Assembly: GCA_963776865.1 (NCBI GenBank)
Contig: CAVZOG010000003.1
Location: 233,269 to 297,268, forward strand
Direction of reading: 5' to 3'
Length of the DNA stretch: 64,000 bases
Origin: an uncultured Chloroflexia bacterium
GTDB taxonomy: Bacteria; Chloroflexota; Limnocylindria; Limnocylindrales; CSP1-4
The stretch's first letter is position 1, and each line of letters starts with the position of its first letter. Shown in pieces: positions 3,732 through 48,936 of this stretch. The translations under genes and the position numbers were made by a program. Under the pieces are notes generated by a model. That model searched no databases. It was not told the DNA's origin and was given only the letters and a program-made list of their open reading frames with translations.

Positions 3732-3799
3732 CGCCCCGGGCGCGGCGAACCTAGCCTGGCGTCACAGTCGAGCGCGCCGCTCCACCGGCGGCGCGCGGC

Positions 3800-4183: not shown

Positions 4184-4278
4184 GCCGTCGCCAGTCTGCG
4201 CCGTCCGTGGCGAACGCACCGGCGCCGGGACTCGCAAGCAAATACCTCGGCCACAGGCGCGCGCCCTAGACTGTCGGA

Positions 4279-4755: not shown

Positions 4756-4758
4756 GCG

Positions 4759-5451: not shown

Positions 5452-6023
5452 CCGACGGGCGCCAACCAACCCGCGACGAAGCGTGGGCGCTGCTGTGTGA
5501 GTGGACCCAATCGGACGCGCTGCGCAAGCATGGCCGCGCGGTCGAGGGGGCAGTCGGCTGGTACGCCGAGAATCGGTTCGGCAAGAGCGGCGCCGAGCTC
5601 GAGACGTGGCGCTCCGCCGGGTTGCTGCACGACTTCGACTACGAACGCTTTCCCGACACGCACCCACTCCAGGGCGCCGACGAGCTGCGCAGCCGCGGCT
5701 ACCCCGAGGAGCTGGTCCAGGCCGTTCTCGGTCACGGTGATCACACGGGCATTCCGCGCACGACGGACCTGGCCCATGCCGTCTACGCGTGCGACGAGAT
5801 GAGTGGCTTCGTGATCGCGGTTGCGCTCGTTCGTCCAAATCGGAGCCTTGACGAGGTTGACGTACGCTCGGTGACCAAGAAGATGAAGGACAAGGGCTTC
5901 GCTCGCCAGGTGCCGCGCGACCAGCTCGAGAAGGGGGCCGAGGAGATCGGAGTGCCATTGGAGGAGCACGTGGCCAATGTGATCGAAGGTCTCAAGGCGG
6001 TTCGCGGAGATCTTGGGCTTTGA
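5448..6023 (+). CDS. HD-domain phosphohydrolase
   Basis: HD motif context (LLHDFDYERF...GHGDHTG). GTG start preceded by GGAGGAG RBS. Overlaps the dedA stop. Confidence 0.75.
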   Translation: MTDGRQPTRDEAWALLCEWTQSDALRKHGRAVEGAVGWYAENRFGKSGAELETWRSAGLLHDFDYERFPDTHPLQGADELRSRGYPEELVQAVLGHGDHTGIPRTTDLAHAVYACDEMSGFVIAVALVRPNRSLDEVDVRSVTKKMKDKGFARQVPRDQLEKGAEEIGVPLEEHVANVIEGLKAVRGDLGL

Positions 6024-6538
6024 CCGACCCGAAGGCCGCCAGCGACGCCGAAACCCTCATCCCGCTCAGTGATCCCGTACGCACCGTCCGCGCCCAGCGC
6101 CGGCTCGACGCCGAGCCGTACCGCGTCTACCGCGCGTGGTCGGCGCCCGAGGCGTTGAGCGAGTGGTTTCCCGACCGCGTCGAGGGATCACTGACGCCTG
6201 GCACGCGCAGCACTCTCGTCTTCCCGGACCAGCGCGTGTGGTGGGACGTCATCGAAGCCGATCCGAACAGTCGCTTCCAGTTCCGCTGGCCGTGGCTGGC
6301 CGACGACGCCTGGGTCACCACGGTCACGGTGACCATCACTCCCCGCGGCTACGGCAGCCTGCTCACGCTCGAGGACGGACCGTTCGACCTGACCCGGCCG
6401 GGCCTGCTCGACGCCTACGCCGAGTGTCTGGCGGGCTGGGAAAAGGCGCTGGCCACACTTCGGGCGCTGATCGATTTCTCGGTCGATTTGCGTGGCCGAA
6501 ACCCGAGTCCGCCGCAGACCGCCGGTCGCGAGCGCTAA
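6020..6538 (+). CDS. SRPBCC / AHSA1 (activator of Hsp90 ATPase homolog)-like protein
   Basis: ATGA overlap with upstream gene. Sequence is typical of the Aha1/SRPBCC family (...YRVYRAWSAPEALSEWF...). Confidence 0.7.
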   Translation: MTDPKAASDAETLIPLSDPVRTVRAQRRLDAEPYRVYRAWSAPEALSEWFPDRVEGSLTPGTRSTLVFPDQRVWWDVIEADPNSRFQFRWPWLADDAWVTTVTVTITPRGYGSLLTLEDGPFDLTRPGLLDAYAECLAGWEKALATLRALIDFSVDLRGRNPSPPQTAGRER

Positions 6539-6904
6539 ATCGTGGCTTCATGCAGCCGCCCTCCCGACGCCGCACGGGCCGTCCACATGACGTACGCCGG
6601 CATGCGACGACTCGACGATGTGCCGGGCAGCAGGTTGGACATAAGGTGAGTCGCAAAGAGTCAGTTGATTCCCAAGCGGAGCAACCTGCCATGTACGGAA
6701 ATGAATTGCTGGTCGAGCAAGTAAAGGCCGAGCCAGAGCTTGCCACCGAGCCGACACCCGAGCCAAAGAACTTGTCGTGGGTCGAAAACGAAGTAGAGAA
6801 TTCGGCGCCGGAGGCGAGGTCGGGACTCCGTTGGCGGTTGGCACTGTTCGCCTATCGCGGCCAAATGGGCCCGACGCGCCACGAAGATTGGCGAAACTTC
6901 CTGC

Positions 6905-8465
6905 CTAAGCGGACACGCTGTAGCGTCCGGCTTGGCAGGCCAAGCTCCGCGTCCGAGAAACGCCTCGCGCACGAAGACAGACGGGGCGGACAGGGTCGTA
7001 GACGATCGTCAGCGAGCGTCTCGCTCGCGTCCAGGCGACATACGCCAGTCGGCGTTCCTCCTCCAGCGCACGTCGCGGGTCATCGGCCTCCTCCAGCGTT
7101 CGCCGGCTCGGGAACACACCCTCGTCAAAGCCGATGCACGCCACGTGGTCGAACTCCAATCCTTTCGTGCCATGGCTCGTGGCCAGCACCAGCTGGGCGT
7201 CGTCGGAACGCAGACTGGCCCGAAGCGCTCTCGCCTGTTCAATTGACGCGCGCAGCTCGGCAACGGTGCGTACGCCCAGCGCCCAGCTGCATAACGCCCG
7301 TGCCAGCGGGTCGCGGCCGGCGTGCCGGGCGACGAGCAAGTGCCGGGGGCCGGTCGTCGGCGCGTGCCTCAAGCTCGGCGATCAGCGCGTCGAGCCCGGG
7401 GTGGTCGAGCATCAGCCCGTCCTCCGCCGCGCGATAGGCAATGCCACTTTCCAGTGCGACCGCCGCGAACGGCGCGAGCTGGGCATTGGTTCGGGCCAGC
7501 ACAGCGTGGACGCCCGGCGCCCGGCCGTACCAACGATTGAGCAGGCGCCGGGCGCGAGCGAGCTCGTCACCGGGATCGGGCGCCAGGATCAGCTGACCGG
7601 CCGCCGTCGGTCCGGCCCTGATCTCCTTTGCGAATCGCTCGCCGTTGATCTCGATGAGGCGCACGGCGCGCTCGACCACGGGCCGCGGACAGCGGTAATT
7701 GGTGACGAGGTCGACGCGGCGCAGGCCCGGCAGTCGGCCGGCGAGGTCGAGCACGCGGCGCACATCTGCAAGGCGCCACGCGTAGATCGTCTGGTCGTCG
7801 TCCCCGACGAGGAAGATGTCGCGCCGCTCGCCGCACAGCAGCACGGCAAGCTCGAGCTGACTCCGATCGACGTCCTGAACCTCGTCGACGAGCAGCGTCG
7901 AGCAACGCTCGCGCCAGCGATCGAGCAGGGCAGCGTCGGACTGAAGAGCGGCCAGTGCTCGCCGAACGAGATCGTCGAAGTCGAGCGCGTCGTTCTCAGC
8001 CAGCCACTCTTCGTAGTGGATGAAGCGGCCGATCACGTCCGCCGGCAAGTTATGTGTCGCCTCCGGCTCGTCGAGCATCTGCCGCGCCCGCGCCACGTCG
8101 ACGCCGAGGTCGAGCTTGAGGCGCGAGAACCCGTCGTCGAGCCGGCGCAGTTGCGCTCCCGAAAGTGGCCGGCCATTGATCGCCGCCAGCGCCTCGGACC
8201 TGTCGACCAGGTTGCGCACACTCACCCCGGCGTCGGCGAGGATCTCGCGACCGAGAGCATGGAACGTCCGCACTCTGACTGCCGGCTCGACGACGCCGAG
8301 CGGCTCGAGGGCAGTTGCCAGGCGCTCGCCCAGCTCGTCTGCGGCGCGCTTGTTGAACGTGACCGCGGTGACGCGGCCCGGATCGGCACCGGTAGCTACA
8401 AGCCAGCAAATGCGCGCGACCAGGGTCGTCGTCTTGCCCGAGCCGGCCGGCGCTACGCATAGCAC
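6905..8465 (-). CDS. UvrD/PcrA-like ATP-dependent DNA helicase, split by a frameshift at ~7240-7380; possible additional N-terminal problem
   Basis: N-terminal ORF has Walker A VLCVAPAGSGKTT, motif TFNKRAA and DEVQD. C-terminal ORF has ...GTKGLEFDHV...YVAWTRARRSLTIVYDP. The in-frame upstream region (LGKLAPDQRAAA) lacks a start codon because of a TGA. Confidence 0.8.
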
Positions 8466-8720
8466 AGGCCCGGGCGGCGCCGTGGCCGCAGCGCGCTGGT
8501 CGGGTGCCAGCTTGCCGAGTCGCTCTTCAACGGCGGGGTGCGATCACCCACTCACGATGGCGTCTGTCAGTTGGCTGCGGATTGCCTGTGAGTTGATCCG
8601 GATTTGCCGCCAATTGGCAAGAACTTCGATGCTCCGTTGCCGCCGAATCCCGGTAACATCCGACCCGTCCGCGCCCCGCCCCCAGCTCTCATGGGGCGCG
8701 CAATAGGAGGGATTCTCTAC

Positions 8721-10519
8721 GTGACCCGTAGACCCGTCGCCGCGCCACGCGGCCGTTTCGGAGCGCTCATTGCTGGCGCTGTGCTCGTCGCACTGCTCGT
8801 GCCCGGAGCAGCGGCCAAGCCCCCGACTTCTCTACCGATCCAGATTCTTGGTCTGAACGACTTCCACGGCCAGCTCGAGTGGGGTAATCCCACGGCCAGC
8901 TCGGGCTTCCGGCTCGGCACCCTGACCGATATCGATCCGAGTCCGACCGTTACCAACAATCGTGTCTCGCCCCGAGCTGCTATGCGGTGGGCGGCGTCGA
9001 GTACCTCTCGACCCACGTCGACAACCTGCGCGCAACGAACCCCAACAGCGTGTTCGTGTCCGCGGGCGACCTCATTGGCGCCACGCCGCTGCTCTCGGCA
9101 GCCTTCCATGACGAGCCGACCATCGAGGCGTTCAACATCATGGAGCTCGACTACAACGGCGTCGGCAACCACGAGTTCGACGAGGGCATCGCCGAGCTCA
9201 AGCGCATGCAGGAAGGCGGCTGCCACCCCGTCGACGGCTGTGGCGATGGCGACGGTTTTGCCGGAGCTGACTTCAAGTTCCTGGCCGCTAACGTCGTCTA
9301 CAAGAAGAACGACAAGCCGATCTTCCAGCCGTACAAGATCCACACCTTCCAGCACGGCGTGAAAGTTGCATTCATCGGCATGACCCTTGAGGGCACGCCG
9401 CTCATCGTCTCGCCAGACGGCATCAGCAACGTCAACTTCCTCGACGAGGCGGCGACGGTCAACGCGCTGGTCCCGGAGATCAAGGCGCAGGGCGTGGAGA
9501 CGATCGTGGTCCTGCTGCACGAGGGCGGAAGCCCCTCGAACACAGGCACCTCAACCCCGGCGACCTCCATCAATAGCTGCGTGAACCCCAGCGGTGCCCT
9601 GCCGCCGATCGTCAATGCGATGGACGACGAGGTCGACGTGGTCATCACCGGCCACACGAACTGGGCGGTCAACTGCCTCATTGACGGCAAGGTCGTCACC
9701 GGCGCCGCGTCCCAGGGCCGGCTGATCACGGACATCGACTTGACGGTCAACCGGGCCACTGGCGACGTGACCGGGCCGATCAACGTCAACAACGTGATGG
9801 TTACCCGCGACGGCGTCGCTGCCGACCCGGCGCTGACGTCGCTGATCGCCAAGTACAACGCGGTAATCGCACCAATTCGTGACGAAGTGGTCGGTCACAC
9901 CACCGGTGCGCTGACGCGTTCCGCCAACGCTGCCGGGGAGTCGACGATGGGAAGTCTCATCGCCGATGCTCAACTGGCGTCTACCCAGACTGACGCTCAA
10001 CCCGGCGTGATCGCGTTCATGAATCCGGGCGGGATGCGCGCCGATATCGCGTTCACCCCGCCGGGACCCGAGCCGATTACCCACGGCGAGGCGTTCTCGG
10101 TGCAGCCGTTCAGCAACATCGTGACGACCAAGACCTACACCGGTGCTCAGATCAAGACGATCCTCGAGCAGCAGTTCGTCGTAAGCACAGGCTCGCAGGC
10201 AGGCAACGCGCGGACTTTGGTCCTGCCCGTGTCGGACGGCTTCTCGTACACGTGGACGGCTTCGGCGCCGATCGGTAGCAAGGTCAGCAACATGATGCTG
10301 AACGGCAATCCGATCGTTACGACGGATAGCTATCGCGTCACCGCCAACAACTTCCTTGCTGGCGGCGGCGATGACTTCCCGGGCTTCACGGTCGGCACCG
10401 CCGAGCAGACCGGTCTCGACGACCTGGTCGCGCTCGAGGCATATCTCGCAGCTCACGACCCGTACACCCCGCTTGATCTGACCATTCCGGCGAATCAGCG
10501 GATCACGCGACTGCCCTAG
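8721..10519 (+). CDS. secreted 5'-nucleotidase / metallophosphoesterase (UshA/YfkN-like) with signal peptide; frameshift ~8965-8985
   Basis: GTG start after AGGAGG. Signal peptide. LGLNDFHGQLE, GNHEFDEG and 5'-nucleotidase C-terminal domain motifs. Reading frame changes between TVTNNRVSP and CYAVGGVEYLSTHV. Confidence 0.85.
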
Positions 10520-36184: not shown

Positions 36185-36880
36185 CTAGCCCAAAGCCAAC
36201 CAAGCGATGGCTGTGGCGCTGCTACGCGACGAGCTGATCTTGATCGTGAACTGGTGCGTCGTTCCATTGACGGTCTGGAACCACAGGCTGCGACCGCTGA
36301 GGTTCACCTTCGGTGTGAGCAGCACGAATGTGTTGGCGTTGATCACATTTGACGTGACGACGACGGACGTCTTGCCGGCACCAATGGTCGCCACTCCGCT
36401 CGCACTGAATTCCAGCCTGCCGTTGGCACGCAGGGCAATGGGGCCAAGGGCCGTGACTGCGACGCCCTCGCTCGAGGAGCCGTAAAGACCGTATCCGGCG
36501 TTCTCGGCGATCCCTGCGACGCCGATACCGCTGCCGTCGACATAACCCAACACGCCGTTGCGCCCCGCCTGGCCAAATCCCAACACCGCCGAGCCGTATG
36601 TGTCCTTGGCGTGCCCGGCGATCGCAGCGCTATCCGGAAGAGCATTAACGCCCTTGTCGGTCACCGCGAAGCCGTAGATGCCGGGACTCTGATTCTGGGT
36701 CACGACGAGGGCAGTCGGCGAGGTGCCGGTCTTCGTCTGGCCGACTGTCACCGCTTCGCCATTGGCGGCCGAGGATGGAGTTGGGCGACCCAACGCATTC
36801 GCTGCCAGTGCGGCAGCTCCGCCGACCGCGGCGGCGAGGATTCCTCGACGCGAACGTTGCGTCATCTCGGGGCTAGACAT
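36185..36880 (-). CDS. Tat-exported Gly-rich protein, divergent member of family A (231 aa)
   Basis: Tat motif QRSRRGILAAAVGGAAALAANA. G-x-(Y/L)-G repeats. C-terminal ...GRSLWFQTVNGTTHQF relates to the RRLWLCKGG motif. Confidence 0.65.
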   Translation of the reverse strand: MSSPEMTQRSRRGILAAAVGGAAALAANALGRPTPSSAANGEAVTVGQTKTGTSPTALVVTQNQSPGIYGFAVTDKGVNALPDSAAIAGHAKDTYGSAVLGFGQAGRNGVLGYVDGSGIGVAGIAENAGYGLYGSSSEGVAVTALGPIALRANGRLEFSASGVATIGAGKTSVVVTSNVINANTFVLLTPKVNLSGRSLWFQTVNGTTHQFTIKISSSRSSATAIAWLALG

Positions 36881-37591: not shown

Positions 37592-37818
37592 CACCTGGGA
37601 GCAGTACGCCTACGACACGACCGAGAAGCAGGTCGGCAAGCGCAGCCGTGAGCGGACGGCTGAGGCTTCATCAGAGCTCGAGTGCGTCCACGAGATGGCG
37701 CAGTATTTCGGGAGATCAATGAGGGCCGGGCTCCAGGGCAAGCCGGAAAAGCTTTCGCTGACCGGCCTACGCCTTGACGACGATCTTCACCCAGCTTGTT
37801 CCGCCCTTGCATAACCAA
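37592..37818 (+). pseudogene. family-C fragment (copy 3): TWEQYAYDTTEK...SSELECVHEMAQY, lacks the DPELA N-terminal part
   Basis: Homologous to residues 40-80 of 27137..27391. Begins inside the stop of the preceding gene, has no own start, and its 3' part overlaps the family-A gene on the opposite strand. Confidence 0.45.
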
Positions 37819-38460
37819 AGGCGCTTGGACTTGTCGAGGTAGATGTCGCCGGCCTCGCCCGACGCCGGATGTGTGGTCGTCGTGGCGGGCTCGAGCCGGA
37901 TCTGAGCGGCCTTGCCCTTGAAGCGACCGCCACGGCCGTTGTCAGACTGGCCATAGACACCCGAGCCCGTGCCACGGGCAACGCCTGACGTGCCATTGCC
38001 AGCGGCCAGGCCCTCGCCGAAGACAGCCGGCCCCGACCCGTTCGTGATCCCGTACACAGCGGCGAAGCCGTTGCTTGCATGGAGATTCTTCACCCTTGAC
38101 CGCAGGCCCGGTGTTGGCGAACTTCAGGCCGTGCACGCTGATGCCTTCGTCAGAGACGGCGAGGCCCTGCAAGCCTTGGGGGCCCTGGACGATGGCTCCG
38201 ATGTCGTTGTCCGATATCGCGACCAGGCCCATACCATTCCCCGTGTTGCGGGCGAGCAGCGTCTGGCCGGAGCTAGTGGACGAGATGGACGTGCCCGAGG
38301 TCCCAGCATCGTTTGGCGTGCCGAGTATCACCGGATTGCCTGCGGCGGCCGCAGTCGGCAGTGGACGCAGGACCGCGCTGGCGACCAACGCCGCCAGTCC
38401 CGCGAAACCTCCGGTCAGTAGCGCCCTGCGCGATCTAAGCTCCAGTGCTGAATCAGACAT
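37767..38460 (-). CDS. family-A Tat-exported Gly-rich protein (copy 3), frameshift ~38095-38110
   Basis: N-terminal ORF has Tat motif LRSRRALLTGGFAGLAALVASA. C-terminal ORF ends ...AAQIRLEPATTTTHPASGEAGDIYLDKSKRLWLCKGGTSWVKI. Confidence 0.65.
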
Positions 38461-38749
38461 GTGACCCTCCGGCGCGGCACCGCCCCTCGACGGTGTTGGG
38501 CGGGCTCGCCTGAGGCGGGTCGACGCACAAAGCGTTGGCCGACTCTACACGCAGCCGACTTGGCGATCGGCGAGACAGCGGTCGACTGCTGCTCGAGATG
38601 GCGCGTTGTCAACGGATCATCGCCGAAGGCGGCGTCCCGAAGTAGTGCTTGTCGCTCCGGGTCACGGCCCTCGGTTGCGACCATGGTCACGACGATTTTC
38701 ACGCTTGACCGAAGGATTCCACCAGTTGTTGGACGACTACTGTCATGAG

Positions 38750-39304
38750 ATGCGGAGCCGCGAGCAAGCAGAGAGCCCTCAACGCGTTGTGGCGTTCGCG
38801 AAGCCGCTCGCCGCTGACGACGCCGCATTTCGCGCTTGGTACGACACCTCGCTGCCGCGCGTGTATTCGTACCTGTTCACGCGCTGCGGCCGCAATACGG
38901 ATCTCGCCGAGGAGCTGACGCAGGAAACGTTTGTGGAGGCGGTCAGATCACGCCCGACCGCTACTGCGGAGCAATCGCTCAATTGGCTGATCGGAATTGC
39001 GCGCCACCGGCTGCTCGATCACTTCCGCAGCGTCGAGCGGCGCGAGCGGCGCTTCGTGCGGCTCGTTGCCAGTCGTCGGCCGCAGAGCGTCTGGATGGAC
39101 GACCCGGACCCGCTGGGTCACATCCAGGACGCACTCGGGCGGCTACCAGCGGCTCAACGGGCGGCCGTGGTGCTGTGCTATGTGGACGGGCTGGCCGTCC
39201 GTGATGCCGCCGCGCTGTTGCATCGCACGGACTCGTCCGTTGAATCACTTCTTGGCCGCGCACGCGCCTCGCTACGCGATTCACTTTCGGAGGAGCCGCG
39301 ATGA
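38750..39304 (+). CDS. ECF-type RNA polymerase sigma factor (sigma-70 family, group 4)
   Basis: Region 2 (FRAWYDTSLPRVYSYLFTRCG...AEELTQETF) and region 4 HTH (AAVVLCYVDGLAVRDAAALLHRTDSSVESLL). ATGA overlap with the next gene. Confidence 0.85.
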   Translation: MRSREQAESPQRVVAFAKPLAADDAAFRAWYDTSLPRVYSYLFTRCGRNTDLAEELTQETFVEAVRSRPTATAEQSLNWLIGIARHRLLDHFRSVERRERRFVRLVASRRPQSVWMDDPDPLGHIQDALGRLPAAQRAAVVLCYVDGLAVRDAAALLHRTDSSVESLLGRARASLRDSLSEEPR

Positions 39305-40722
39305 ATACGCGCGAACAGTGGAGCGATCAGGAGCTGATCAGTGCGCTGCGCGGCATCGACCAAGACCTGCAGCCGCGGCCCGAGTTCGCGGACCGTCTGT
39401 TCCAGGTCGTCCTCCGCGAGAAAGCCGCGCGCCGGCGCCCCACGTTCCTGTTCATGGCCGCCGCGGCGCTGCTGGTGGCCTCCATCGCCGGTGCGGCTGT
39501 GTTCGGCAGCGGTCCGTTTCGCGACCCGAACGTCCGCACCGTCATCATCGCACCGACCGCGTCGGCCCCTACGTCGACACCTACTGCGAGCGCCATGGCA
39601 ACTGCCGGCGTGTCATGGACCGGCGCAGTACGCGCCGACGCAGACACGATGCCGCTGTTAACCATGGACGGTCCCGCTGTATGTTCCGCCGAGAACCCAA
39701 TCAGTTGGGAGGATGAGCTCGAGTCCCCGACGGGATTTGTCGACATCATCGAGACACGTTGGTCACCAGGCCCGGGTACCAGTCTCCCGGTCCTCATGCT
39801 CTCCTCGAAGCCGCCGCCTGCTTTGGAGCTGGACCCAAGCCTCGCGCTGATCGAGTACGGGCTGGTGTTCGATGAGAATCTTGACGGCACACCGGACTAT
39901 GAATTAGGTATCAACAACTCCCCGGACGGCGCCTCATATCGCGTCTGGGTAACCGATCTGGCCCGTGGTGGAACGGTGGAACAAATCGGCCCCCCGTACG
40001 GCGCGCCGGTTGAGTTCAGGCATCCGGACGAGCAGGACGCGGGCGAGTCTCCATCCATGTCGTTCGTGTTGCTAACCGGCGTCCCCACACCCCTCGCGCT
40101 CGGTCGCGAGTACCGCTACTACGCTTGGTCTTCGTACTCCGAGAACGGTTCTGTCGTGGCATGGGATTACGCGCCCAACTTCGGCTGGCTGCAACTGCCC
40201 ACCTGCCAAGCTTTGCCTCGGGCTTCCGAGGAGACCGTGCCGCCCGGCTGGACGCTCCATGACCGGCCACTACCCGGAATGGGCAGCAACAAGGCCGGCG
40301 AATACGGATGGACTGGCGCACTGGGTTCCAGAAGTTGGATGCACAGCGTGATAACCGATCCCACTTATGGTGATGGCTACCGACAGACCCAGCTCACCTT
40401 TGCCATCCAGGACGATTGCTTCCCTCGGGCAGCAGGTGCAGAGCCGACGTCGTTGAGAGTAGCCGGGCTCGACGGCCTATACCTCGTGCCCTACCACGAT
40501 CCGAGCGTGCTGTTGTTCTCCAAAGGCGGCAAGACGACCGGAGCGTATGCCCTGCCTATCGGCGACCGAACGCTGTGCGCCTACGTCACATGGGACGCGG
40601 CGACGACACCGGAAGAACTGAGCGCAGCGCACGCGGTGGTGGGTTCCATCCGCGGCCAGCCCTTCGGGGGGAACGGTATTCGCATCAACTTCACGCTGCC
40701 TGCCGGTTGGGACACCGGATGA
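39301..40722 (+). CDS. anti-sigma factor: cytoplasmic N-terminal domain, single TM, ~400-aa extracytoplasmic domain
   Basis: Translationally coupled to the sigma gene. TM TFLFMAAAALLVASIAGAAVF at residues 48-68. C-terminus ...INFTLPAGWDTG. Confidence 0.75.
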   Translation: MNTREQWSDQELISALRGIDQDLQPRPEFADRLFQVVLREKAARRRPTFLFMAAAALLVASIAGAAVFGSGPFRDPNVRTVIIAPTASAPTSTPTASAMATAGVSWTGAVRADADTMPLLTMDGPAVCSAENPISWEDELESPTGFVDIIETRWSPGPGTSLPVLMLSSKPPPALELDPSLALIEYGLVFDENLDGTPDYELGINNSPDGASYRVWVTDLARGGTVEQIGPPYGAPVEFRHPDEQDAGESPSMSFVLLTGVPTPLALGREYRYYAWSSYSENGSVVAWDYAPNFGWLQLPTCQALPRASEETVPPGWTLHDRPLPGMGSNKAGEYGWTGALGSRSWMHSVITDPTYGDGYRQTQLTFAIQDDCFPRAAGAEPTSLRVAGLDGLYLVPYHDPSVLLFSKGGKTTGAYALPIGDRTLCAYVTWDAATTPEELSAAHAVVGSIRGQPFGGNGIRINFTLPAGWDTG

Positions 40723-40823
40723 CACGGCCCAGGCGCGACTGACGGACGCGACCGAACTACTTCTCGCCAAGGGACGAAATCCACCCCACCAATGGACGCT
40801 CGAATCAGAGCAGGAGGTAAGCG

Positions 40824-41669
40824 ATGTCCCGTACGCGCTTCAGTCTCGCCGCGACAGCGCACATCGTCGTCGCGAGCTGCTTGATGATCGGATGCACCAG
40901 CGGTGCGCCGTTGGCGACAGCCACGCTCGCTCAGCCGTCACCAACGCCTGTCGACATAGTCACCTCATCGCCAACGCCTCCGCCGACAAACGCGCCCACG
41001 GCGTCTCCAGACGACGCCTCATCGGCACCGGCGGCGCAGAACATCGAGGAAATGAATGCCTTCGGAGAACTCCCTCCCGGCACCTATTGGGTTGCTGGTG
41101 AACCGGACAACACCTGGCGCGTGCAATTCAGCGTCCGCTCTTCCGGGTGGAGCGCGTTCCTGGGACCGTTCAAACAGGAGACGGCCGAGGGCAAGACCCA
41201 CCGGATCATGACCCTGAACTTCTTCGACATCCGAAACACCGTCAAGGACGCATGCACCGATCACAAATACCGCGATCCCGCGGTAGGTCCGTCGGTGGAC
41301 GACTTGGCGGAGGCTGCGTCCTCGCTCTCACCATTTGTCGTCAAATCCGCGCCCACCGACGTAACGGTATTCGGCTACTCCGGCAAACACCTCATCCTGG
41401 AGGTCCCGGATGTGCCGTTCAGCGTCCGCAACGGACAGCCTTCATTTGCCGAGTGCGACACAGGCGGCCTCCTCAAATCCTGGATCGGGCCACCGCTGTC
41501 GTACGCGTACTACGGCTACGCGGAACCGGGCCAAACGGAGGAGCTCTGGATACTCGATGTCGAGGGGAAGCGGCTCACGATAAGCAGGCTCTCGCACCCC
41601 GACTCGCCACCGCAAGACGTTGCGGAGCTCAACGAAATCTTCGAATCGATCGAGATCTATCCAGAGTGA
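40824..41669 (+). CDS. lipoprotein carrying the ~190-aa domain shared with the anti-sigma 43972..46041 C-terminus
   Basis: Lipobox LMIG-C-TSG. WRVQFSVRSSGWSAF ... EELWILDVEGKRLTISRL...DVAELNEIFESIEI aligns with ARFTLPAGWST ... EVWIVDPDRESIVLHTW...DRAELQGILESLSL. Confidence 0.7.
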   Translation: MSRTRFSLAATAHIVVASCLMIGCTSGAPLATATLAQPSPTPVDIVTSSPTPPPTNAPTASPDDASSAPAAQNIEEMNAFGELPPGTYWVAGEPDNTWRVQFSVRSSGWSAFLGPFKQETAEGKTHRIMTLNFFDIRNTVKDACTDHKYRDPAVGPSVDDLAEAASSLSPFVVKSAPTDVTVFGYSGKHLILEVPDVPFSVRNGQPSFAECDTGGLLKSWIGPPLSYAYYGYAEPGQTEELWILDVEGKRLTISRLSHPDSPPQDVAELNEIFESIEIYPE

Positions 41670-41678
41670 GTGGACTCT

Positions 41679-41712
41679 CAGAACCGGACCGAAAGGGCCG
41701 GTTCTTTGTAGA
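41679..41712 (+). terminator. rho-independent terminator GAACCGGACC-GAAA-GGGCCGGTTC + TTTGTA (twin of 36075..36106)
   Basis: Stem-loop plus T tract 10 nt after the lipoprotein stop. Confidence 0.7.
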
Positions 41713-41945: not shown

Positions 41946-42488
41946 ATGAAGCTCCGCGTCGCAGTCGCACTCGCTCTCGCCATGACCTTACTGTTGCCTG
42001 GTCTGGCGCTCGCAGACACCAAAATTCGGGACCAAGGACTGTTCGGCGAACACAGGCTGCGCGACCGGTGGAGCAACCCGGGTGCAATCTGTACCTACGA
42101 CAATTCGTGGGGGCAGCTTCAGTCGATCGAGGTCCGGGCGCCGCGCGTTCTGGCTCGTGACGTGAGTTCGAGCGAGGACTCGCAGAATGTCGGGTGGCAG
42201 TTCTCGATCAAGCGTCGCTTCGAGGACGGCCGCCAGGTGACCGTGTATGCGAGCTCCACGCAGATCGCAACCGCCACGGACACGGCCGCTGCCCCGTTCG
42301 CAAGGATGTCTACCGCCTTCGTCCCTGACTACCCCGGTCCTTTCAAGGTGGTAGTTCGAATGTTCTGGTACGAGACAGGCGGGGCTATCGAGGGTATGGC
42401 CAAGCACCGGATCGATCACTACACCCGCATCACCGCTGAGGATTCCAACGCTCCTCACGAACGGGTGTGCGAGACCGGCTACGTGTAA
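41946..42488 (+). CDS. secreted hypothetical protein (signal peptide)
   Basis: MKLRVAVALALAMTLLLPGLALA signal. 180-aa ORF. Confidence 0.6.
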   Translation: MKLRVAVALALAMTLLLPGLALADTKIRDQGLFGEHRLRDRWSNPGAICTYDNSWGQLQSIEVRAPRVLARDVSSSEDSQNVGWQFSIKRRFEDGRQVTVYASSTQIATATDTAAAPFARMSTAFVPDYPGPFKVVVRMFWYETGGAIEGMAKHRIDHYTRITAEDSNAPHERVCETGYV

Positions 42489-43214: not shown

Positions 43215-43396
43215 CTGGTTGAAATTATGGCGCGGACATCAACTGGCTGTCACGGCGCCGCATGGGAACGTTTCAATGGCGAAGCGTTCACCCTGCGTCG
43301 CCCAGTCGGTTTCCAATTCCGAAGCATTATCCAATGCAGCGCGAAGATTGAACCGCTGAGGGCCTGTCCCAAGTCATAGGGTTAGAGGCCGGTTGA

Positions 43397-43975
43397 ATGA
43401 CCGGCACGCACCACGGCGGCTATGGCATGCGGCAGGAATTAATCGAACGGGCGATGGCCGGCGATCGGGATGCCTTCGGGCAACTCGCCGCGCACGATGT
43501 CGACCGTCTTCATGCCGTAGCGCATTTGATCCTGCGCGATTCCCACCTCGCTGAGGATGCCGTTCAGGAAGCACTGATCAGGTGTTGGCGCCAGTTGCCC
43601 AAGTTGCGCGATCCAGCGAGCTTCGACGGCTGGCTGTATCGCATCCTGGTCCACGCCGCAACGGACGAGCACAAACGTCGCCGGCGTTTCGCGGGCAGCG
43701 TCCAGAACGTCCGATTCGAGCCTGCAGCACCCGACGAGACGCGAGCCGTGGCCGACAGAGAGCAACTCGATCAGGGTTTCGAACGGCTGTCACTGGATCA
43801 TCGGGCAGTGGTCGTGCTGCATCACTTCGCGGACCTGCCGCTTGTCGAGGTGGCCGCGGCGCTCGGAATCCGAGAGGGCACGGCCAAGTCCCGGTACCAC
43901 TACGCGATGGCGTCGCTGAGGGCCGCCCTAGATGCTGAAATCCGACTTGCTGCTGCAGAAGGGGCACAGGCATGA
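43397..43975 (+). CDS. ECF-type RNA polymerase sigma factor (second copy)
   Basis: Region 2 (AFGQLAAHDVDRLHAVAHLILRD...AEDAVQEALI) and region 4 (AVVVLHHFADLPLVEVAAALGIREGTAKSRYHYA). AGAGG RBS. ATGA overlap with the next gene. Confidence 0.85.
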   Translation: MTGTHHGGYGMRQELIERAMAGDRDAFGQLAAHDVDRLHAVAHLILRDSHLAEDAVQEALIRCWRQLPKLRDPASFDGWLYRILVHAATDEHKRRRRFAGSVQNVRFEPAAPDETRAVADREQLDQGFERLSLDHRAVVVLHHFADLPLVEVAAALGIREGTAKSRYHYAMASLRAALDAEIRLAAAEGAQA

Positions 43976-46041
43976 ACGCCGAGCGAACCGTCACCGACTG
44001 GCTGAACGCCCAGGCTCCCACCCACGCTCCGGCGGGCCTGATCGGCGAGACGATTGACCGTATCGCCGCCGTACCTCAGGAGCGCGTCCTGTGGAGACGA
44101 CCCTTGGCTGCGGCGCACCGCGGCAAGTCACGATCGCTGCTTGCGCTAGTTGGGGCGATCCTTGCGATCAGTGTTGTGGGCGGCCTCGGAGTGGTCGGCG
44201 GGATGAACATCCTGATTGGACCGTCGGAGTCATCCTTGCCAACGACTTCGCCACCAGCGTCACCGTCCCCCGAGGCGACAGCATCACCGCAGCCGACGGG
44301 GTCGCCCCTTTCAATTGCGCCGCCAGGCGGCGGGCGAATCGCGTTCAGCACGAATGGAACCGACCCGGCGAAGGAAGGCGACATCTACCTCGTGACGCGT
44401 GGACAGGTACGCAGAATCGTCGGCTCGGATGCCGACTCCCTCAACGAACGCTGCCCAGCGCTGTCAGCGGATGGCACACAGCTGGCCTACGGCCAGGCAC
44501 GCGGCACCGATCAGGACGGACATACAGACGCCGCCCTGGTCATCGCGGATCTCGATGACTTGGGAAACGTCATCGCCACGCGCGGATTCGGGTTAAGCGG
44601 CTCCGGAGTTGATGAATCCGCGGCACCGCCGTGCGCGATCTGGTCGCCCGACGGTCAGTGGCTGGCGTTCGGCGTGGCCGTCTGGAAGGAGAGACCGGAC
44701 GGCGAAGTGGCGATCAACACGAGCGAAGTCCGGATAATCCCCGTCGGGGGACAGTCGATGACCTCACTCCCCGTGTCCGCCACCGATCTCGAGTGGTCGC
44801 CGGACAGCTCGCAGCTCGCGGTCGCAAGCGGTGTAGAGATAAGCATCTACCCGGTGGCGATGCCAGAACCGCACGAAACCCTATCGGGCACGCAAGGCGC
44901 AACCCAAATCAGCTGGTCGCCTGATGGCCAGTTCATCGCCTACCAGCGCGGGGAGCAGGACCAGCTGGTGGTGCACGACATCGTCACGGGTGAGAACCAC
45001 GTATTGGCGAGCGGATTCTCGATCGTCCATGGCATCGGACCAGTTTGGTCGCCAGCCGGAGATCAGATCGTGTACCAGCGGGTCTGCAATTCCTACATCA
45101 CCGAGGACGGAACGACCAAGCCGTGTCGCGAGCAGAGCGACGTGGTTCTGCTAGAGGCGGGTGCGGGTTCGAGCTGGCGACCGACCGAGGTGACGGAGCG
45201 GCTCATGCCCCCGTTCGTGCCGGATGGCCACAAGGAATTCGGGCCTTTGCCATCTCGCGTGACCTGGTCACCCGATGGCGACAGCCTCCTATACGCAACC
45301 TTTTTCGGGACGCTCGTTGCGGTTCCCGTCTCGGGTGATCAGACCGCCGTGGTTCTTGCGCAACACGACGACATGTCGGTCCATGAGGGAGGCTTCTCCA
45401 TTCCGATCCAGATTTGGGGTGTTCAACCAGCAGTGGTCATTCCGTCAATACCGGCTGAGTCCGTCTTGTTGGAGCCGGGCACGCACACTATTGCCCAGGG
45501 CACCTGGACTTCTCTGGGCCGGTTCCCACCGATGACTGGGCAGGCCCGGTTCACGCTCCCCGCAGGCTGGTCGACAGACAGCCGCGGCCGGGTATTCAAG
45601 GGAAGCGAGAACGGCCCGAGCGGTATCGGTCTGCAGTTCGGCACGATCAAGGACGTGTACGCCGATCCGTGCAGCTGGTCGGCAGGTGCTGTCGAGATCC
45701 AGCCAGGCTCGACTCGGTCCGGGTCCTTTGACGTGGCCACCGCGCTCGCCGGCGATGAGACGACGCTATCACGGGCGCGGCTGGGGTCGGACTTGGCCTA
45801 TCACCTAACCCTTGCCGTGCCGGCAACTATTTCCGACTGTGACAATGAAGAGTTCCGCAGATGGAACGCCCCTGACGGCCGTCGCACGTTCGAGCATCGC
45901 GCCGGCCAGATCGATGAAGTATGGATCGTCGACCCAGACCGTGAGTCGATCGTTCTGCACACCTGGTATTTCGCGGGCACCACAGCCGAAGATCGAGCGG
46001 AGTTGCAGGGGATCCTCGAATCCCTCTCGCTGCCCATGTGA
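43972..46041 (+). CDS. anti-sigma factor with TM, Ser/Pro linker, TolB/WD40-like beta-propeller (WSPDG repeats) and C-terminal ~190-aa domain shared with lipoprotein 40824..41669
   Basis: Coupled to the sigma gene. TM LLALVGAILAISVVGGLGVVGG. Repeated ...WSPDG(Q/S)... blades. C-terminal ARFTLPAGWSTDS...ELQGILESLSL. Confidence 0.75.
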   Translation: MNAERTVTDWLNAQAPTHAPAGLIGETIDRIAAVPQERVLWRRPLAAAHRGKSRSLLALVGAILAISVVGGLGVVGGMNILIGPSESSLPTTSPPASPSPEATASPQPTGSPLSIAPPGGGRIAFSTNGTDPAKEGDIYLVTRGQVRRIVGSDADSLNERCPALSADGTQLAYGQARGTDQDGHTDAALVIADLDDLGNVIATRGFGLSGSGVDESAAPPCAIWSPDGQWLAFGVAVWKERPDGEVAINTSEVRIIPVGGQSMTSLPVSATDLEWSPDSSQLAVASGVEISIYPVAMPEPHETLSGTQGATQISWSPDGQFIAYQRGEQDQLVVHDIVTGENHVLASGFSIVHGIGPVWSPAGDQIVYQRVCNSYITEDGTTKPCREQSDVVLLEAGAGSSWRPTEVTERLMPPFVPDGHKEFGPLPSRVTWSPDGDSLLYATFFGTLVAVPVSGDQTAVVLAQHDDMSVHEGGFSIPIQIWGVQPAVVIPSIPAESVLLEPGTHTIAQGTWTSLGRFPPMTGQARFTLPAGWSTDSRGRVFKGSENGPSGIGLQFGTIKDVYADPCSWSAGAVEIQPGSTRSGSFDVATALAGDETTLSRARLGSDLAYHLTLAVPATISDCDNEEFRRWNAPDGRRTFEHRAGQIDEVWIVDPDRESIVLHTWYFAGTTAEDRAELQGILESLSLPM

Positions 46042-46168: not shown

Positions 46169-46522
46169 ATGAGAACCCTCAGCGTCGTCGACACATCAGC
46201 AGACATCGCCTGCACTCTTCCGGTCAACGAGATGCGTGATCGTCTCAGGGAGCTACAGGGACTTGTTGGCGATCGCCTCGAGAGTGCGATCCTCGTTGGC
46301 GACAAACTTCGGATCCGCATGGATCGAGACGGCGACGAGGATCTCGACCGCAAGGTCGTCGCCTGGGCTGAGGTCGAGAAGGGCTGCTGCGCATTCCTCG
46401 GCTTCGCCATCGAGTCGGATTTGGACGTTGTGACGCTGGAGATCGCCGCGCCCACAGAGGCAACCGCGACGCTTGAGGGTATCGAGTGGATCTTCCAGGC
46501 AGCCGGGCAGATGCCCGCGTGA
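46169..46522 (+). CDS. hypothetical protein (117 aa) co-transcribed with the MerR-family regulator
   Basis: Stop overlaps the GTG start of the next gene (GTGA). Contains EVEKGCCAF. Confidence 0.45.
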   Translation: MRTLSVVDTSADIACTLPVNEMRDRLRELQGLVGDRLESAILVGDKLRIRMDRDGDEDLDRKVVAWAEVEKGCCAFLGFAIESDLDVVTLEIAAPTEATATLEGIEWIFQAAGQMPA

Positions 46523-46956
46523 CCGACGGGCTTCGCATCGGCGACGTCGCCCGATCTGCCGGGGTCAACGTCCAGACACTCCGCTATTACGAGCGCCGCG
46601 GCCTCGTTGTACCGAGCTTTCGGCGGCACTCCGGCCAGCGCGAGTACGACGAATCTGACGTGAGCCGAGTCAAGGTGATCAAGGCCGCACAACGCCTCGG
46701 TTTCACCTTGGCTGAGATCCATGAGATGTTCGACCTCTCCGCTCACCGTCACAGCACTGGCGAGCTTCGGACACGCGCCGCCGCCAAGGTCGCCGAGATC
46801 GACGGACGAATCGATCGTCTCAAGTCGATGCGCGCCGATTTGTCGGCAGTTATCGCTGCCGATTGCGACTCGTTGACCGACTGCTCTTGCGGACTGGGCT
46901 GTCCGCTGCCATTCGTCGAGCTGAGCAAGCAGAGGAAGACACATGCCCGAGATTGA
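46519..46956 (+). CDS. MerR-family transcriptional regulator with Cys-rich C-terminus (CDSLTDCSCGLGCP)
   Basis: HTH IGDVARSAGVNVQTLRYYERRGLV and coiled-coil dimerisation region. The C-terminal Cys cluster suggests metal sensing. Confidence 0.8.
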   Translation: MTDGLRIGDVARSAGVNVQTLRYYERRGLVVPSFRRHSGQREYDESDVSRVKVIKAAQRLGFTLAEIHEMFDLSAHRHSTGELRTRAAAKVAEIDGRIDRLKSMRADLSAVIAADCDSLTDCSCGLGCPLPFVELSKQRKTHARD

Positions 46957-47199: not shown

Positions 47200-48936
47200 G
47201 TGGTCCGATGTCGGCCAACGATGAACGCCACATCAGCCGTCGCCAGCGTCAAGGGCTACTACAGCACGCGTTTCCGACGCGAATGGATCGGCCGCGACGT
47301 AGTGGCTGGGCTCGTGCTGGCCAGCCTGCTGGTGCCGCAGGGCATGGCCTACGCCGAGCTTGCCGGCCTGCCGCCGATCACCGGCCTGTACACCTCGATC
47401 CTGTGCCTCGTCGCCTACGCGCTCGTTGGCCCGTCGCGGATCCTGGTCCTCGGCCCCGACTCGTCACTTGGGCCGATGATCGCGGCGACGATCCTGCCGC
47501 TGATGGTCGCCGGCGGCGATCCGCAGAAGGCGGTCATGTACGCATCGGCGCTGGCGCTCATGGTCGGCGTGGTGATGCTCGTCGGCGCGCGGGCAGGTCT
47601 GGGCTTTATAGCCGACCTGCTCTCCAAGCCGACCCAGATCGGCTACATGAACGGCCTCGCGCTGACGATCTTCGTCGGCCAGCTGCCCAAGCTGTTCGGC
47701 TTCTCGAGCGACGCGAACGGTCTGATCGACGAGACGATCGCCTTTGTGCGCGGGGTGGCCGAGGGCCAGACGGTGCCAGCCGCGCTTGCTGTCGGCCTGA
47801 TCAGCATCGCGATCATGGTCGTCTTGGGCCGCTGGTTGCCCAAGATCCCGGCCGTGCTGGTTGCGGTCGTCGCGGCGATGGCCATCGTTGTCGCGTTCGA
47901 TCTCGGCGCCGCCGGCGTCTCGCTGGTCGGCACACTGCCGGCCGGACTCCCGCCGCTGACCATCCCGCTCGTTCCTTTGGCCGACATAGGTTTGCTGATC
48001 GCCGGCGCGTTGGGTATCGCCGTCGTGTCGCTGGCCGACACGATCTCGACCTCGTCCGCCTTTGCGGCACGCACCAAGCAGGAGGTCCATGCCGACCGTG
48101 AGATGGTCGGCATTGGAGCGGCCAACATCGCCGCCGGTTTCTTCCAGGGCTTCCCGGTCAGCACGAGCGGCTCGCGCACGGCGGTTGCCGAACGAGCCGG
48201 CGCGCGATCGCAGCTGACCGGTCTGGTCGGCGCAGCAGTGATCGCCGCGATGCTCATCTTCCTGCCCGGACTGTTCCAGTTCCTGCCCCAGCCGACGCTC
48301 GCCGCGGTGGTCATCATCGCCTCGATCAGCCTGGCCGACGTGCCGGGAACAATGCGCCTGTTCCGACAGCGACCGGCCGAGTTCGCCATCTCCCTCGCGG
48401 CCTTCCTGGGCGTGGCCCTGTTCGGCGTTCTACCCGGCGTCGCAATCGCGGTCGGCATCTCGATCATGGCCGTCTTCCAGCGCGCGTGGAACCCGTACCG
48501 CACGGTTCTCGGCGACGTGCCCGGAGTTCGGGGCTACCACGACGTGCGCTCCTATCCGCAGGCCGAACAGCTGCCTGGGCTGGTCATCTATCGCTTCGGG
48601 GCGCCATTGATCTTCGCCAACGCGCCGACCTTCCGCGACGAGATCCGCGAGTTTGCCAAGGCAGATCCGCCCCCGACCTGGATCGTCATTGCCGCCGAGC
48701 CCATTACCGACATCGATATCACCGCCTCGGACATGCTCGACGAGCTGGACGCCGAGCTTGAGGCGGCGGGCATAGCCCTCGTCTTCGCGGAGCTCAAGGA
48801 CGCGGTGCGCGACAACGTCGACGACTACGGCATGCGCTGGCTCCAGCGTCGCGACCGTTTCTACCCGACCCTCGGAGCGGCGGTCACGGCGTACCGAGAG
48901 CAGGCGGAGTCACCCACGCGGGGTGATGAATCGTGA
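47200..48936 (+). CDS. SulP-family anion permease with C-terminal STAS domain
   Basis: ...VAGLVLASLLVPQGMAYAELAGLPPITGLYTSI... is the SulP signature. STAS-like C-terminus (...IDITASDMLDELDAELEAAGIALVFAELKD). Confidence 0.85.
   Translation: MVRCRPTMNATSAVASVKGYYSTRFRREWIGRDVVAGLVLASLLVPQGMAYAELAGLPPITGLYTSILCLVAYALVGPSRILVLGPDSSLGPMIAATILPLMVAGGDPQKAVMYASALALMVGVVMLVGARAGLGFIADLLSKPTQIGYMNGLALTIFVGQLPKLFGFSSDANGLIDETIAFVRGVAEGQTVPAALAVGLISIAIMVVLGRWLPKIPAVLVAVVAAMAIVVAFDLGAAGVSLVGTLPAGLPPLTIPLVPLADIGLLIAGALGIAVVSLADTISTSSAFAARTKQEVHADREMVGIGAANIAAGFFQGFPVSTSGSRTAVAERAGARSQLTGLVGAAVIAAMLIFLPGLFQFLPQPTLAAVVIIASISLADVPGTMRLFRQRPAEFAISLAAFLGVALFGVLPGVAIAVGISIMAVFQRAWNPYRTVLGDVPGVRGYHDVRSYPQAEQLPGLVIYRFGAPLIFANAPTFRDEIREFAKADPPPTWIVIAAEPITDIDITASDMLDELDAELEAAGIALVFAELKDAVRDNVDDYGMRWLQRRDRFYPTLGAAVTAYREQAESPTRGDES

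Follow-up and report, generated by a model that had tools for sequence, protein, structure and literature searches.

A lipoprotein beside one putative ECF anti-sigma factor shares an uncharacterised Mog1/PsbP-like domain with the ectodomain of another

Introduction

Few bacterial signalling systems are as abundant as ECF sigma factors, and the signals to which they respond are mostly unknown, notably in the uncultured Actinomycetota and Chloroflexota of soil and freshwater. The 64,000-nt stretch of an uncultured Chloroflexia genome analyzed here (the window; contig CAVZOG010000003.1, positions 233,269 to 297,268) raises a question of this kind, as a lipoprotein (LP) encoded behind one putative anti-sigma factor (AS1) resembles the C-terminal part of a second one (AS2) encoded approximately 3 kb away. 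How did the same domain come to be separate at one locus and fused at the other, and which role might the separate protein undertake? Below, we describe two ECF sigma/anti-sigma modules within the window, in which one uncharacterised extracytoplasmic domain is deployed in two ways.

Results

Organization of the two sigma/anti-sigma modules

The ORF positions of AS1 (473 aa), LP (281 aa), and AS2 (689 aa) were confirmed, and identical products were found in the source records. The first module opens with ECF sigma factor 1 (38606..39304, plus strand, given as the longest ORF), in which Pfam detected Sigma70_r2 (E 1.9e-11) and Sigma70_r4_2 (E 6.1e-13) and no region 3, and which reached 52.7 bits with the NCBIfam sigma70-ECF model against a cut-off of 42.9. 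Because region 2 starts only at residue 79, the true start is probably internal to this ORF. ECF sigma factor 2 (43397..43975, plus strand) opens the second module, with Sigma70_r2 at 2.7e-15, r4 at 3.2e-9, and 80.7 bits against the same cut-off, so that regions 2 and 4 (Pfam Sigma70_r2 and r4/r4_2) are the only ones present in either protein. A single pattern match upstream of sigma 2, GGAAC-N15-CGTT (43265..43288, plus strand), is a candidate ECF-type promoter. In both pairs, the stop codon of the sigma gene overlaps the start of the anti-sigma gene as ATGA, in keeping with co-transcription of each pair. The LP gene (40824..41669, plus strand) starts 101 nt 3' of AS1 and carries, as read from the sequence, its own GGAGG ribosome-binding site (40813..40817, plus strand) 6 nt before the start codon. 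The terminator scan returned no plus-strand terminator-like site in the AS1-LP interval. At 11 nt past the LP stop, a hairpin visible in the sequence, AGAACCGG-N10-CCGGTTCT followed by TTGT (41680..41705, plus strand), is a possible operon end, left uncalled by the scan because its T-tract is weak.

AS1 (39301..40722, plus strand) is a putative membrane-anchored anti-sigma factor, for which the AF2 model (pLDDT 80) shows two N-terminal helices (residues 9-22 and 27-43), a transmembrane helix at about 50-68, and two extracytoplasmic modules. Module A (about residues 110-300; 39628..40200, plus strand) is a CBM9/DOMON-like beta-sandwich, and module B (about residues 305-473; 40213..40719, plus strand) is considered below. 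No Pfam or NCBIfam model matched AS1, those for N-terminal anti-sigma domains (class I ASD, zf-HC2, RskA or similar) included; its homologues lie directly behind an ECF sigma gene in six further loci examined. The anti-sigma-like AS2 (43972..46041, plus strand) comprises an N-terminal cytoplasmic region, a transmembrane segment seen as a hydrophobic stretch (about residues 55-83), a PD40 beta-propeller (Pfam 2.3e-16), and the C-terminal domain in question. By this layout, AS1 and AS2 are both single-pass proteins with the N-terminus in the cytoplasm. Over residues 5-139, AS2 gave a weak, sub-threshold match to NCBIfam NF052375 'antisigma' (E 0.0038, 17 bits vs a cut-off of 100), and equally weak matches recur in six of ten family members (E 1e-3 to 0.08); AS1 and most family members stay below the threshold of every anti-sigma model in Pfam and NCBIfam.

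A domain common to LP and AS2

LP begins with a signal peptide and a lipobox (LMIGC, Cys24) that is kept in about 60 homologues, followed by a Pro/Thr/Ser-rich linker and the LP-type domain of ~190 residues (residues 78-281; 41055..41666, plus strand), which bears two invariant cysteines (C144 and C211) and a VGPSVDDL motif. Pairwise BLASTP aligned only the last 90 residues of LP with AS2 (26% identity, E 2e-5). When a profile was built from 42 LP homologues with AS2 excluded, LP 79-278 aligned with AS2 496-687 (45457..46032, plus strand) over 180 columns (hhalign, 98.9%, E 2e-17), and hmmsearch of this profile among the 613 ORFs of the window found AS2 at a domain E of 1.6e-21. The two comparisons bear out the preliminary description, made from the letters of the sequence, in that LP and AS2 have a domain in common which one locus keeps separate and the other fused, and its three quoted pairs of LP/AS2 motifs do fall opposite each other in the hhalign alignment. 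Its extension of the match to the whole mature length of LP goes slightly too far, the linker of ~55 residues after the lipobox being unaligned.

By three-dimensional fold, the domain belongs with the Mog1/PsbP-like proteins, the nearest being the actinobacterial MTC28 and LpqN. The same description had left the domain unrecognised, which stands at the level of curated families, as neither LP nor any of 27 domain members matched any Pfam or NCBIfam family at E <= 1, and does not stand at the level of the fold. A PDB sequence search with the LP-type profile gave no match. At E <= 1e-3, the family amounts to 5,687 clusters (50% identity). Among its 149 best representatives, 79 combine a cytoplasmic N-terminus with a transmembrane segment and one to three copies of the domain, and 35 are lipoproteins; the two-copy form is seen in 38 representatives. 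Two proteins served as negative controls for the profile comparison, namely the 180-aa secreted protein encoded downstream of LP (41946-42488) and the lipoprotein behind the AS1 homologue in locus L084; both scored below 1% against the domain family in hhalign and are not hidden members of it.

The C-terminal module of AS1

Pairwise BLAST of AS1 with LP and with AS2 returned a 12-residue motif at most and nothing significant, so that profiles were required. Profile against profile, module B and the LP domain aligned over 107 columns, in the C-terminal two thirds of the latter (98.4%, E 9e-15), in agreement with the earlier proposal that AS1 ends in a homolog of the second half of the domain. 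The final residues of AS1 had likewise been read as matching the start motif of the domain. The resemblance is real: the terminal INFTLPAGWDTG, followed by the stop codon, is similar to that motif and is modelled as a confident beta-strand at residues 459-466. When this last strand was moved to the front of the module, hhalign aligned 145 columns (score 78.6), compared with 77 (score 64.9) before the move, and placed the strand on WRVQFSVRSSGW of LP, in the first strand of its domain. Module B is a divergent and, judging from these alignments, probably circularly permuted copy of the LP-type domain.

The same strand could be taken for the leftover of a lost domain, and the preliminary description spoke of a sensor-domain fission with respect to a paralogous anti-sigma factor. 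Taken literally, an AS2-like ancestor would have split here into AS1 and LP, with the terminal FTLPAGW of AS1 as the stump; the likeness of this C-terminal motif to the first strand of the domain and the distance of just 101 nt between the two genes speak for such an event. At least 19 AS1 homologues, found in other samples, end in the same conserved strand, however, GIRINFTLPAGWDTG (40675..40719, plus strand; high pLDDT), and some of them have no LP downstream. Their ending in GWDTG makes the closing RINFTLPAGWDTG of AS1, directly before its stop codon, a conserved natural C-terminus, which also speaks against AS1 as a truncated pseudogene. LP, moreover, owns a first strand, a signal peptide, a lipobox, and a ribosome-binding site. 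Outside the LP-type module, no similarity between AS1 and AS2 was detectable, and their ectodomains differ (a CBM9/DOMON-like sandwich vs a PD40 propeller); the domain copies of LP and AS2 are only about 23-26% identical and fall into distant, deeply separated clades. This dissimilarity and the separation of the clades argue against a recent fission of an AS2-like gene and against paralogy of AS1 and AS2, and we hold the literal scenario to be very improbable. The LP-type domain forms a mobile family whose members are anchored in alternative ways, with no recent split within this genome.

Supply of the domain in cis and in trans

In module 2, the domain is thus supplied in cis, C-terminal to the PD40 propeller of AS2; in module 1, it is supplied in trans, as a lipoprotein encoded directly behind AS1. 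The alternation recurs elsewhere. A PD40 anti-sigma factor together with a separate LP, the split mirror of AS2, was found by Pfam in L013, L017, and L039 and by sequence inspection in L016, L019, and L030. Conversely, the modules of AS1 itself occur joined to the LP-type domain: P0082 is a fusion of module A with the domain, P0075 a lipoprotein with the domain and module B, and P0080 a lipoprotein with the domain and module A. The fused and separate forms stand side by side in L002, and in six loci (L024, L025, L036, L048, L054, and L070) an anti-sigma factor with one copy is followed by a lipoprotein with another. The parts are therefore fused in some genomes (AS2, P0082, P0075, P0080) and encoded by neighboring genes in others, which is the Rosetta-stone pattern. 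The anti-sigma ectodomains that precede LP vary, with PD40 propellers among them, and Kelch propellers occur in other family members; LP is not bound to the particular ectodomain of AS1, because an HMM of module A found almost no other anti-sigma factors beside LP homologues.

Genomic linkage to ECF sigma genes

The preliminary description had named linkage of the homologues to ECF/anti-sigma genes as one of two points on which its proposal would stand or fall. Linkage was found. The sample consisted of MAGs throughout, chosen by two peptide patterns from an alignment of close relatives; small HMMs of our own were used for scoring, and start codons were assigned heuristically. Among the 81 domain genes, 48 (59%) had an ECF sigma gene on the same strand within 3 kb upstream, compared with one of 81 (1%) for upstream ECF sigma genes on the opposite strand and 19 of 80 for downstream ones. 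The order sigma, anti-sigma, LP recurs in L002, L083, L085, L086/L087, and many of L003-L082, spanning MAGs of many uncultured Actinomycetota and Chloroflexota. In related loci, the lipoprotein gene starts at -29 to +153 nt relative to the end of the anti-sigma gene, frequently at -4 or -1; in L086/L087, 4-nt overlaps run through the genes for sigma, a 434-aa protein, and the lipoprotein.

These data bear on whether there is any functional connection at all. Extracytoplasmic proteins of a common fold might lie near each other by chance in an ECF-rich genome: two ECF sigma genes stand less than 5 kb apart in the window, and Actinobacteria carry about 18 ECF sigma genes per genome (PMC7826278). 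Chance proximity would not, however, account for a linkage that is specific to strand and position, for a gene order repeated across two phyla, or for the same modules appearing as fusion proteins, and we give this explanation very little credence.

A more serious competitor makes LP the output of the system. LP would then be a protein of the envelope, perhaps a chaperone for lipids or proteins of the LpqN or DcrB kind. Its gene would ride on an autoregulated sigma/anti-sigma operon and be expressed when sigma 1 is active, and the fused anti-sigma copies would be sensors related to LP by ancestry only. Target genes often sit behind the anti-sigma gene in ECF operons, and a regulon target would equally be co-transcribed with the sigma gene. 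The lipoprotein is, besides, facultative in AS1-family loci: an LP-type gene lies downstream in four of eight (the window, L002, L083, and L085) and is missing from the other four (L084, L088, and the P0058 and P0054 loci), the P0054 locus lacking it although the flanking HPPK gene is common to L083. Certain LP-type lipoproteins are encoded away from any sigma gene, such as the two in tandem in L001, and LpqN and MTC28, whose solved structures come nearest in fold, are themselves envelope or secreted proteins and no regulators. Against an output role, anti-sigma-type proteins with the domain as their ectodomain make up more than half of the 149 best representatives, and the domain is fused to AS1's own modules in P0082, P0075, and P0080. 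In addition, the lipoprotein gene often overlaps the anti-sigma gene by 4 nt, which suggests that the two proteins are made in stoichiometric amounts, and operons pairing a one-copy anti-sigma factor with a one-copy lipoprotein recreate the two-copy form of the 38 representatives. An output role for LP seems to us unlikely on this balance, though it deserves more weight than either fission or chance.

Discussion

Proposed role of LP

The reading that we prefer, at a rough probability of 0.55, is that LP is a sensing or partner component of the sigma 1/AS1 system that gates AS1, with an intramolecular equivalent in AS2. Sigma 1, AS1, and LP would be transcribed together, and LP would come to lie on the outer face of the membrane next to the AS1 ectodomain. 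There it may bind an envelope-derived or external ligand, or the AS1 ectodomain itself, and this binding would gate the inactivation of the anti-sigma factor and thereby the release of sigma 1, in a manner resembling that of RseB on RseA or of CseA on the Streptomyces sigE system. In AS2, the corresponding gating step would take place within one molecule. The recurrence of fused and adjacent forms marks the LP-type domain as a likely sensing or partner module outside the cytoplasm. The analysis shows the homology, the fold, the two kinds of anchor, the operon structure, and this recurrence; contact between the proteins, binding of a ligand, and an influence on proteolysis are inferred.

A bolder generalization would be that the ECF anti-sigma factors of Acidimicrobiia-type Actinomycetota and of Chloroflexota sense mainly through the LP-type domain, which would work in units of two copies. 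Tandem copies would then make an anti-sigma factor self-sufficient; where there is one copy, or the permuted partial one of AS1, the co-encoded lipoprotein would provide the missing part in trans, forming a heterodimeric ligand sensor that controls anti-sigma proteolysis. We offer this as speculation and consider it doubtful in so general a form. The finding nevertheless defines a large domain family, of thousands of clusters at 50% identity, outside the Pfam and NCBIfam models, and would place it where anti-sigma factors do their sensing, available either in cis or in trans. It gives a concrete basis on which to name the family, to predict systems made up of a sigma factor, an anti-sigma factor, and a lipoprotein, and to plan experiments on ligands and interactions.

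Comparison with known systems

No paper joining PsbP with ECF or anti-sigma factor terms appeared among the top-ranked full-text matches of a literature search, and the ECF reclassification paper, in its main text, makes no mention of lipoproteins or PD40 in ECF neighborhoods. The clostridial RsgI proteins are modular anti-sigma factors whose ectodomains contain carbohydrate-binding modules. The likeness lies in a single-pass anti-sigma factor bearing a string of exchangeable extracytoplasmic binding modules, as in the CBM9/DOMON-like module A of AS1 and in PD40 or Kelch among its relatives; RsgI systems differ in using SigI rather than an ECF sigma factor, in phylum, and in the modules themselves, and to our knowledge no accessory lipoprotein has been described for them.

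With respect to fold, LP is comparable to a set of Mog1/PsbP-like envelope proteins (MTC28 (Rv0040c), LpqN, Apa, DcrB, PA0094/DUF1795, and Tsi3), with which it is 5-13% identical. No curated sequence family of that fold in Pfam or NCBIfam, among them those of MTC28, LpqN, PsbP, DcrB, and DUF1795, matches LP or the 27 members, and the Cys pair, the VGPSVDDL motif, and the anti-sigma linkage are specific to the LP-type family. An interaction with MmpL3/MmpL11 has been reported for LpqN, which was also studied with a TMM lipid mimic (PMC7458404).

In gene order and anchor, LP is likened to CseA of Streptomyces coelicolor (sigE-cseA-cseB-cseC), an actinobacterial lipoprotein on the outer face of the membrane whose gene lies right behind that of the ECF sigma factor. 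CseA dampens the sigE promoter, possibly via the ectodomain of the sensor, and its loss raises pathway activity (PMC6767563). The CseA system, however, relies on a two-component sensor, works without an anti-sigma factor, and has been described as restricted to Streptomyces.

A parallel in arrangement is offered by RseB/MucB and RseA/MucA in Proteobacteria (sigma-E, AlgU), where the operon likewise encodes an exported accessory protein behind the sigma factor and the anti-sigma factor. By binding RseA, RseB keeps DegS from cleaving it until LPS binds RseB (PMC4102768); the accessory protein binds the anti-sigma ectodomain and gates site-1 cleavage on a lipid-type signal (PMC4102768), which for LP serves as a working analogy. 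The two share no sequence or fold relationship, LP being PsbP/Mog1-like and giving no match to Pfam MucB/RseB or to NCBIfam. Further, LP is lipid-anchored whereas RseB is soluble, and the LP-type domain also occurs fused to anti-sigma factors. That an accessory extracytoplasmic protein tunes an anti-sigma factor is a principle already known from RseB and CseA, and its present extension is useful to specialists rather than startling.

Organization of the two sigma/anti-sigma gene sets

Two ECF sigma factor genes, sigma 1 (38606-39304, plus strand) and sigma 2 (43397-43975, plus strand), both matched Pfam regions 2 and 4 and scored above the NCBIfam ECF cut-off, their products sharing 29% identity. 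Each is followed by a gene for a single-pass membrane protein, namely the putative anti-sigma factor AS1 (473 aa; 39301-40722, plus strand) and the anti-sigma-like AS2 (689 aa; 43972-46041, plus strand); in both pairs, the start codon of this second gene and the sigma stop codon overlap (ATGA). Downstream of AS1, after 101 nt, lies the gene for LP (281 aa; 40824-41669, plus strand), a lipoprotein with a lipobox-containing signal peptide. A GGAGG ribosome-binding site precedes LP, no plus-strand terminator-like site was found in the AS1-LP interval, and a hairpin (41680-41705) is located 3' of the LP stop codon. The source-record gene calls gave identical products for AS1, LP and AS2. A candidate ECF-type -35/-10 pair, GGAACGTTTCAATGGCGAAGCGTT (GGAAC-N15-CGTT; 43265-43288), situated ~130 nt upstream of sigma 2, may constitute an autoregulatory promoter; this simple pattern did not recur in the stretches scanned ahead of sigma 1, in the AS1-LP interval or after LP.

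The gene at 41946-42488 (plus strand), 277 nt downstream of LP, encodes a protein of 180 aa that begins with a signal peptide, is unrelated to the LP domain and has no significant Pfam/NCBIfam match. AS2 is followed by a MerR-family regulator (46486-46956, plus strand; Pfam MerR_1, E 1.5e-20) and a SulP-family sulfate permease with a STAS domain (47200-48936, plus strand; E 1.3e-81), ordinary genes with no evident connection to the sigma, anti-sigma and LP genes. On the minus strand, the ORFs 37942-38460 and 37767-38093, which overlap but lie in different frames, jointly resemble one gene (37767-38460) for a Tat-signal, Gly-rich secreted protein styled like that of 36185-36880 (minus strand), pointing to a frameshift or an error in sequencing close to 38,080; no Pfam match was obtained for any of these three ORFs.

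A PsbP-like domain shared by LP, AS2 and AS1

The preliminary description proposed that the ~190-residue domain of LP (LP-type domain, here found to have a Mog1/PsbP-like fold) recurs at the AS2 C-terminus and, in pieces, in AS1, and both proposals were borne out. BLASTP aligned only the last 90 residues of LP and AS2 (26% identity, E 2e-5); profile comparison, using 42 LP homologues with AS2 left out, equated LP 79-278 with AS2 496-687 over 180 columns (98.9% probability, E 2e-17), placing in register all three motif pairs cited in that description. When the LP profile was searched against the 613 ORFs of the window by hmmsearch, hits were limited to LP itself, AS2 (domain E 1.6e-21) and a faint match in AS1. 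Pairwise comparison of AS1 gave no significant match. The AS1 homologues have an ectodomain with two conserved modules, the CBM9/DOMON-like module A and module B (residues ~305-473), and the module B profile matched the LP-domain profile with 98.4% probability (E 9e-15); two unrelated neighbor proteins, used as negative controls, remained below 1%. Structure models reached pLDDT >90 for LP residues 78-281 and 80 for AS1, whose module B matched the structures 1tu1, 3hlz, 3lyd and 4luq.

The resemblance of the final AS1 residues to the domain start motif is real, since the ending GIRINFTLPAGWDTG is the conserved natural C-terminus of at least 19 AS1 homologues from other samples, forms a confident beta-strand in the model, and, when shifted to the N-terminus, extends the profile alignment from 77 to 145 columns (score 64.9 to 78.6), coinciding with the first LP strand, WRVQFSVRSSGW. 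The same shared ending argues against reading this terminus as the remnant of a domain since lost. Module B is probably circularly permuted relative to the LP-type domain, and plausibly descends from a tandem domain pair; in many anti-sigma-like proteins of 470-717 aa (P0083-P0098), two or three LP-type domains occur in tandem, which could be the raw material for such a permuted module.

Family size and architectures

Hallmarks of the LP-type domain are an invariant Cys pair (LP C144 and C211), a VGPSVDDL motif and a WILDV.G.R strand. Neither Pfam nor NCBIfam matched it in LP and 27 diverse members, nor did PDB sequences, and at the sequence level it falls outside every curated family. Searched against 1.84 billion cluster representatives, the profile retrieved 5,687 proteins with E <= 1e-3, of which 1,006 had E <= 1e-30. 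Among the best 149 representatives, 79 combine an N-terminal cytoplasmic region of 30 or more residues, a transmembrane segment and one (37), two (38) or three (4) domain copies, their N-termini showing recurring sub-threshold matches to the NCBIfam 'antisigma' model NF052375; 35 are lipoproteins, and the other 35 comprise 10 with either a signal peptide or a transmembrane segment near the start and 25 of other or partial architecture.

The modules of AS1 and the LP-type domain are also joined within single proteins, as an anti-sigma N-terminus with module A and the LP-type domain (P0082) or as lipoproteins pairing that domain with module B (P0075) or module A (P0080). Shuffling of the ectodomain modules is further indicated by the module B homologues P0066 and P0068, in which module A is replaced by a region matching LCCL (PF03815) and PF08642 in precomputed Pfam data.

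Genomic linkage to ECF sigma genes

Scanning GTDB species representatives with close-relative patterns yielded 80 loci, all from MAGs and mostly from Actinomycetota (Acidimicrobiia, Microthrixaceae, Ilumatobacteraceae) and Chloroflexota (Limnocylindria, CSP1-4). These loci were scored with HMMs of our own construction for an ECF sigma gene lying within 3 kb; one was located upstream of the domain gene on the same strand in 48/81 cases (59%), against 1/81 on the opposite strand, and downstream on the same strand in 19/80. Sigma-to-domain distances formed three clusters: ~0.3-0.45 kb, in which the domain is directly fused to the anti-sigma factor, ~1.0-1.4 kb, and ~1.6-2.4 kb, which fits the order sigma, long anti-sigma gene and lipoprotein, as in the window.

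The intervening anti-sigma factor varies among loci. It bears a PD40 propeller in L013, L017 and L039 (by Pfam) and in L016, L019 and L030 (by sequence inspection), the split mirror of the fused AS2; Kelch repeats in L057; regions unmatched by Pfam in L007 and L026; its own LP-type copy in L024, L025, L036, L048, L054 and L070, among others; and AS1 module A in L002. The anti-sigma stop and the lipoprotein start are separated by -29 to +153 nt, frequently -4 or -1. In L002 (ENA ERZ25039504 contig_52587, 3082-8756), fused and separate architectures occur inside 6 kb as two divergent, back-to-back ECF modules, one comprising sigma, an anti-sigma factor bearing only module A and an LP lipoprotein, the other sigma, an anti-sigma factor fused directly to the LP-type domain and a further LP-type secreted protein.

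These arrangements uphold the earlier view that the domain is used both in cis and in trans, whereas its derivation by fission of a paralogous anti-sigma factor is not supported. AS1 and AS2 show no detectable similarity outside the shared module and differ in their ectodomains, and the LP and AS2 domain copies, ~23-26% identical, fall in deeply separated clades of a neighbor-joining tree, which does not fit a recent split in this genome. Anchor type changes at least five times in this tree, a rough count given that the lipobox heuristic mislabelled some tips. The nearest relatives of the AS2 copy are four stand-alone proteins (242-291 aa), one of them encoded in an operon where the genes for sigma, a 434-aa protein and the lipoprotein overlap by 4 nt at every junction. 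The pattern is that of a mobile domain with alternative anchors.

Proposed role and comparison with known systems

We propose, with a probability of roughly 55%, that sigma 1, AS1 and LP act together as a three-part ECF signaling module. Sensing or partnering outside the cytoplasm would fall to the PsbP-like domain, which LP would provide in trans and AS2 contains in cis, and which would gate anti-sigma inactivation. Homology, fold, anchoring, operon structure and the choice between fusion and adjacency rest on the present observations, while binding, a ligand and control of proteolysis are inferred. The main rival, which we hold to be rather unlikely, is that LP is an output of the regulon. 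An LP-type gene lies immediately downstream in four of the eight AS1-family loci, namely the window, L002, L083 (E 3e-51) and L085 (E 8e-54), and not in the other four; the P0054 locus, which has the same flanking HPPK gene as L083, is among those without the lipoprotein, and L001 has two tandem LP-type lipoproteins without a nearby sigma gene. The lipoprotein thus recurs often without being required, which fits a modulator and, equally, an output gene carried along in the operon.

A large, unnamed PsbP-like domain family is thus tied to ECF anti-sigma factors and used in cis or in trans, which is useful for annotation and yields a testable hypothesis. The signaling principle itself is not new. 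Until LPS binds to it, RseB protects RseA against cleavage by DegS (PMC4102768), a mode of action comparable to the gating proposed here, and the lipoprotein CseA dampens the Streptomyces sigE system (PMC6767563), a tuning comparable to the role proposed for LP. Among fold relatives for which functional data exist, the nearest is LpqN, which reportedly engages MmpL transporters as well as a lipid mimic (PMC7458404); a ligand derived from the cell envelope would therefore be a reasonable guess for the LP-type domain.
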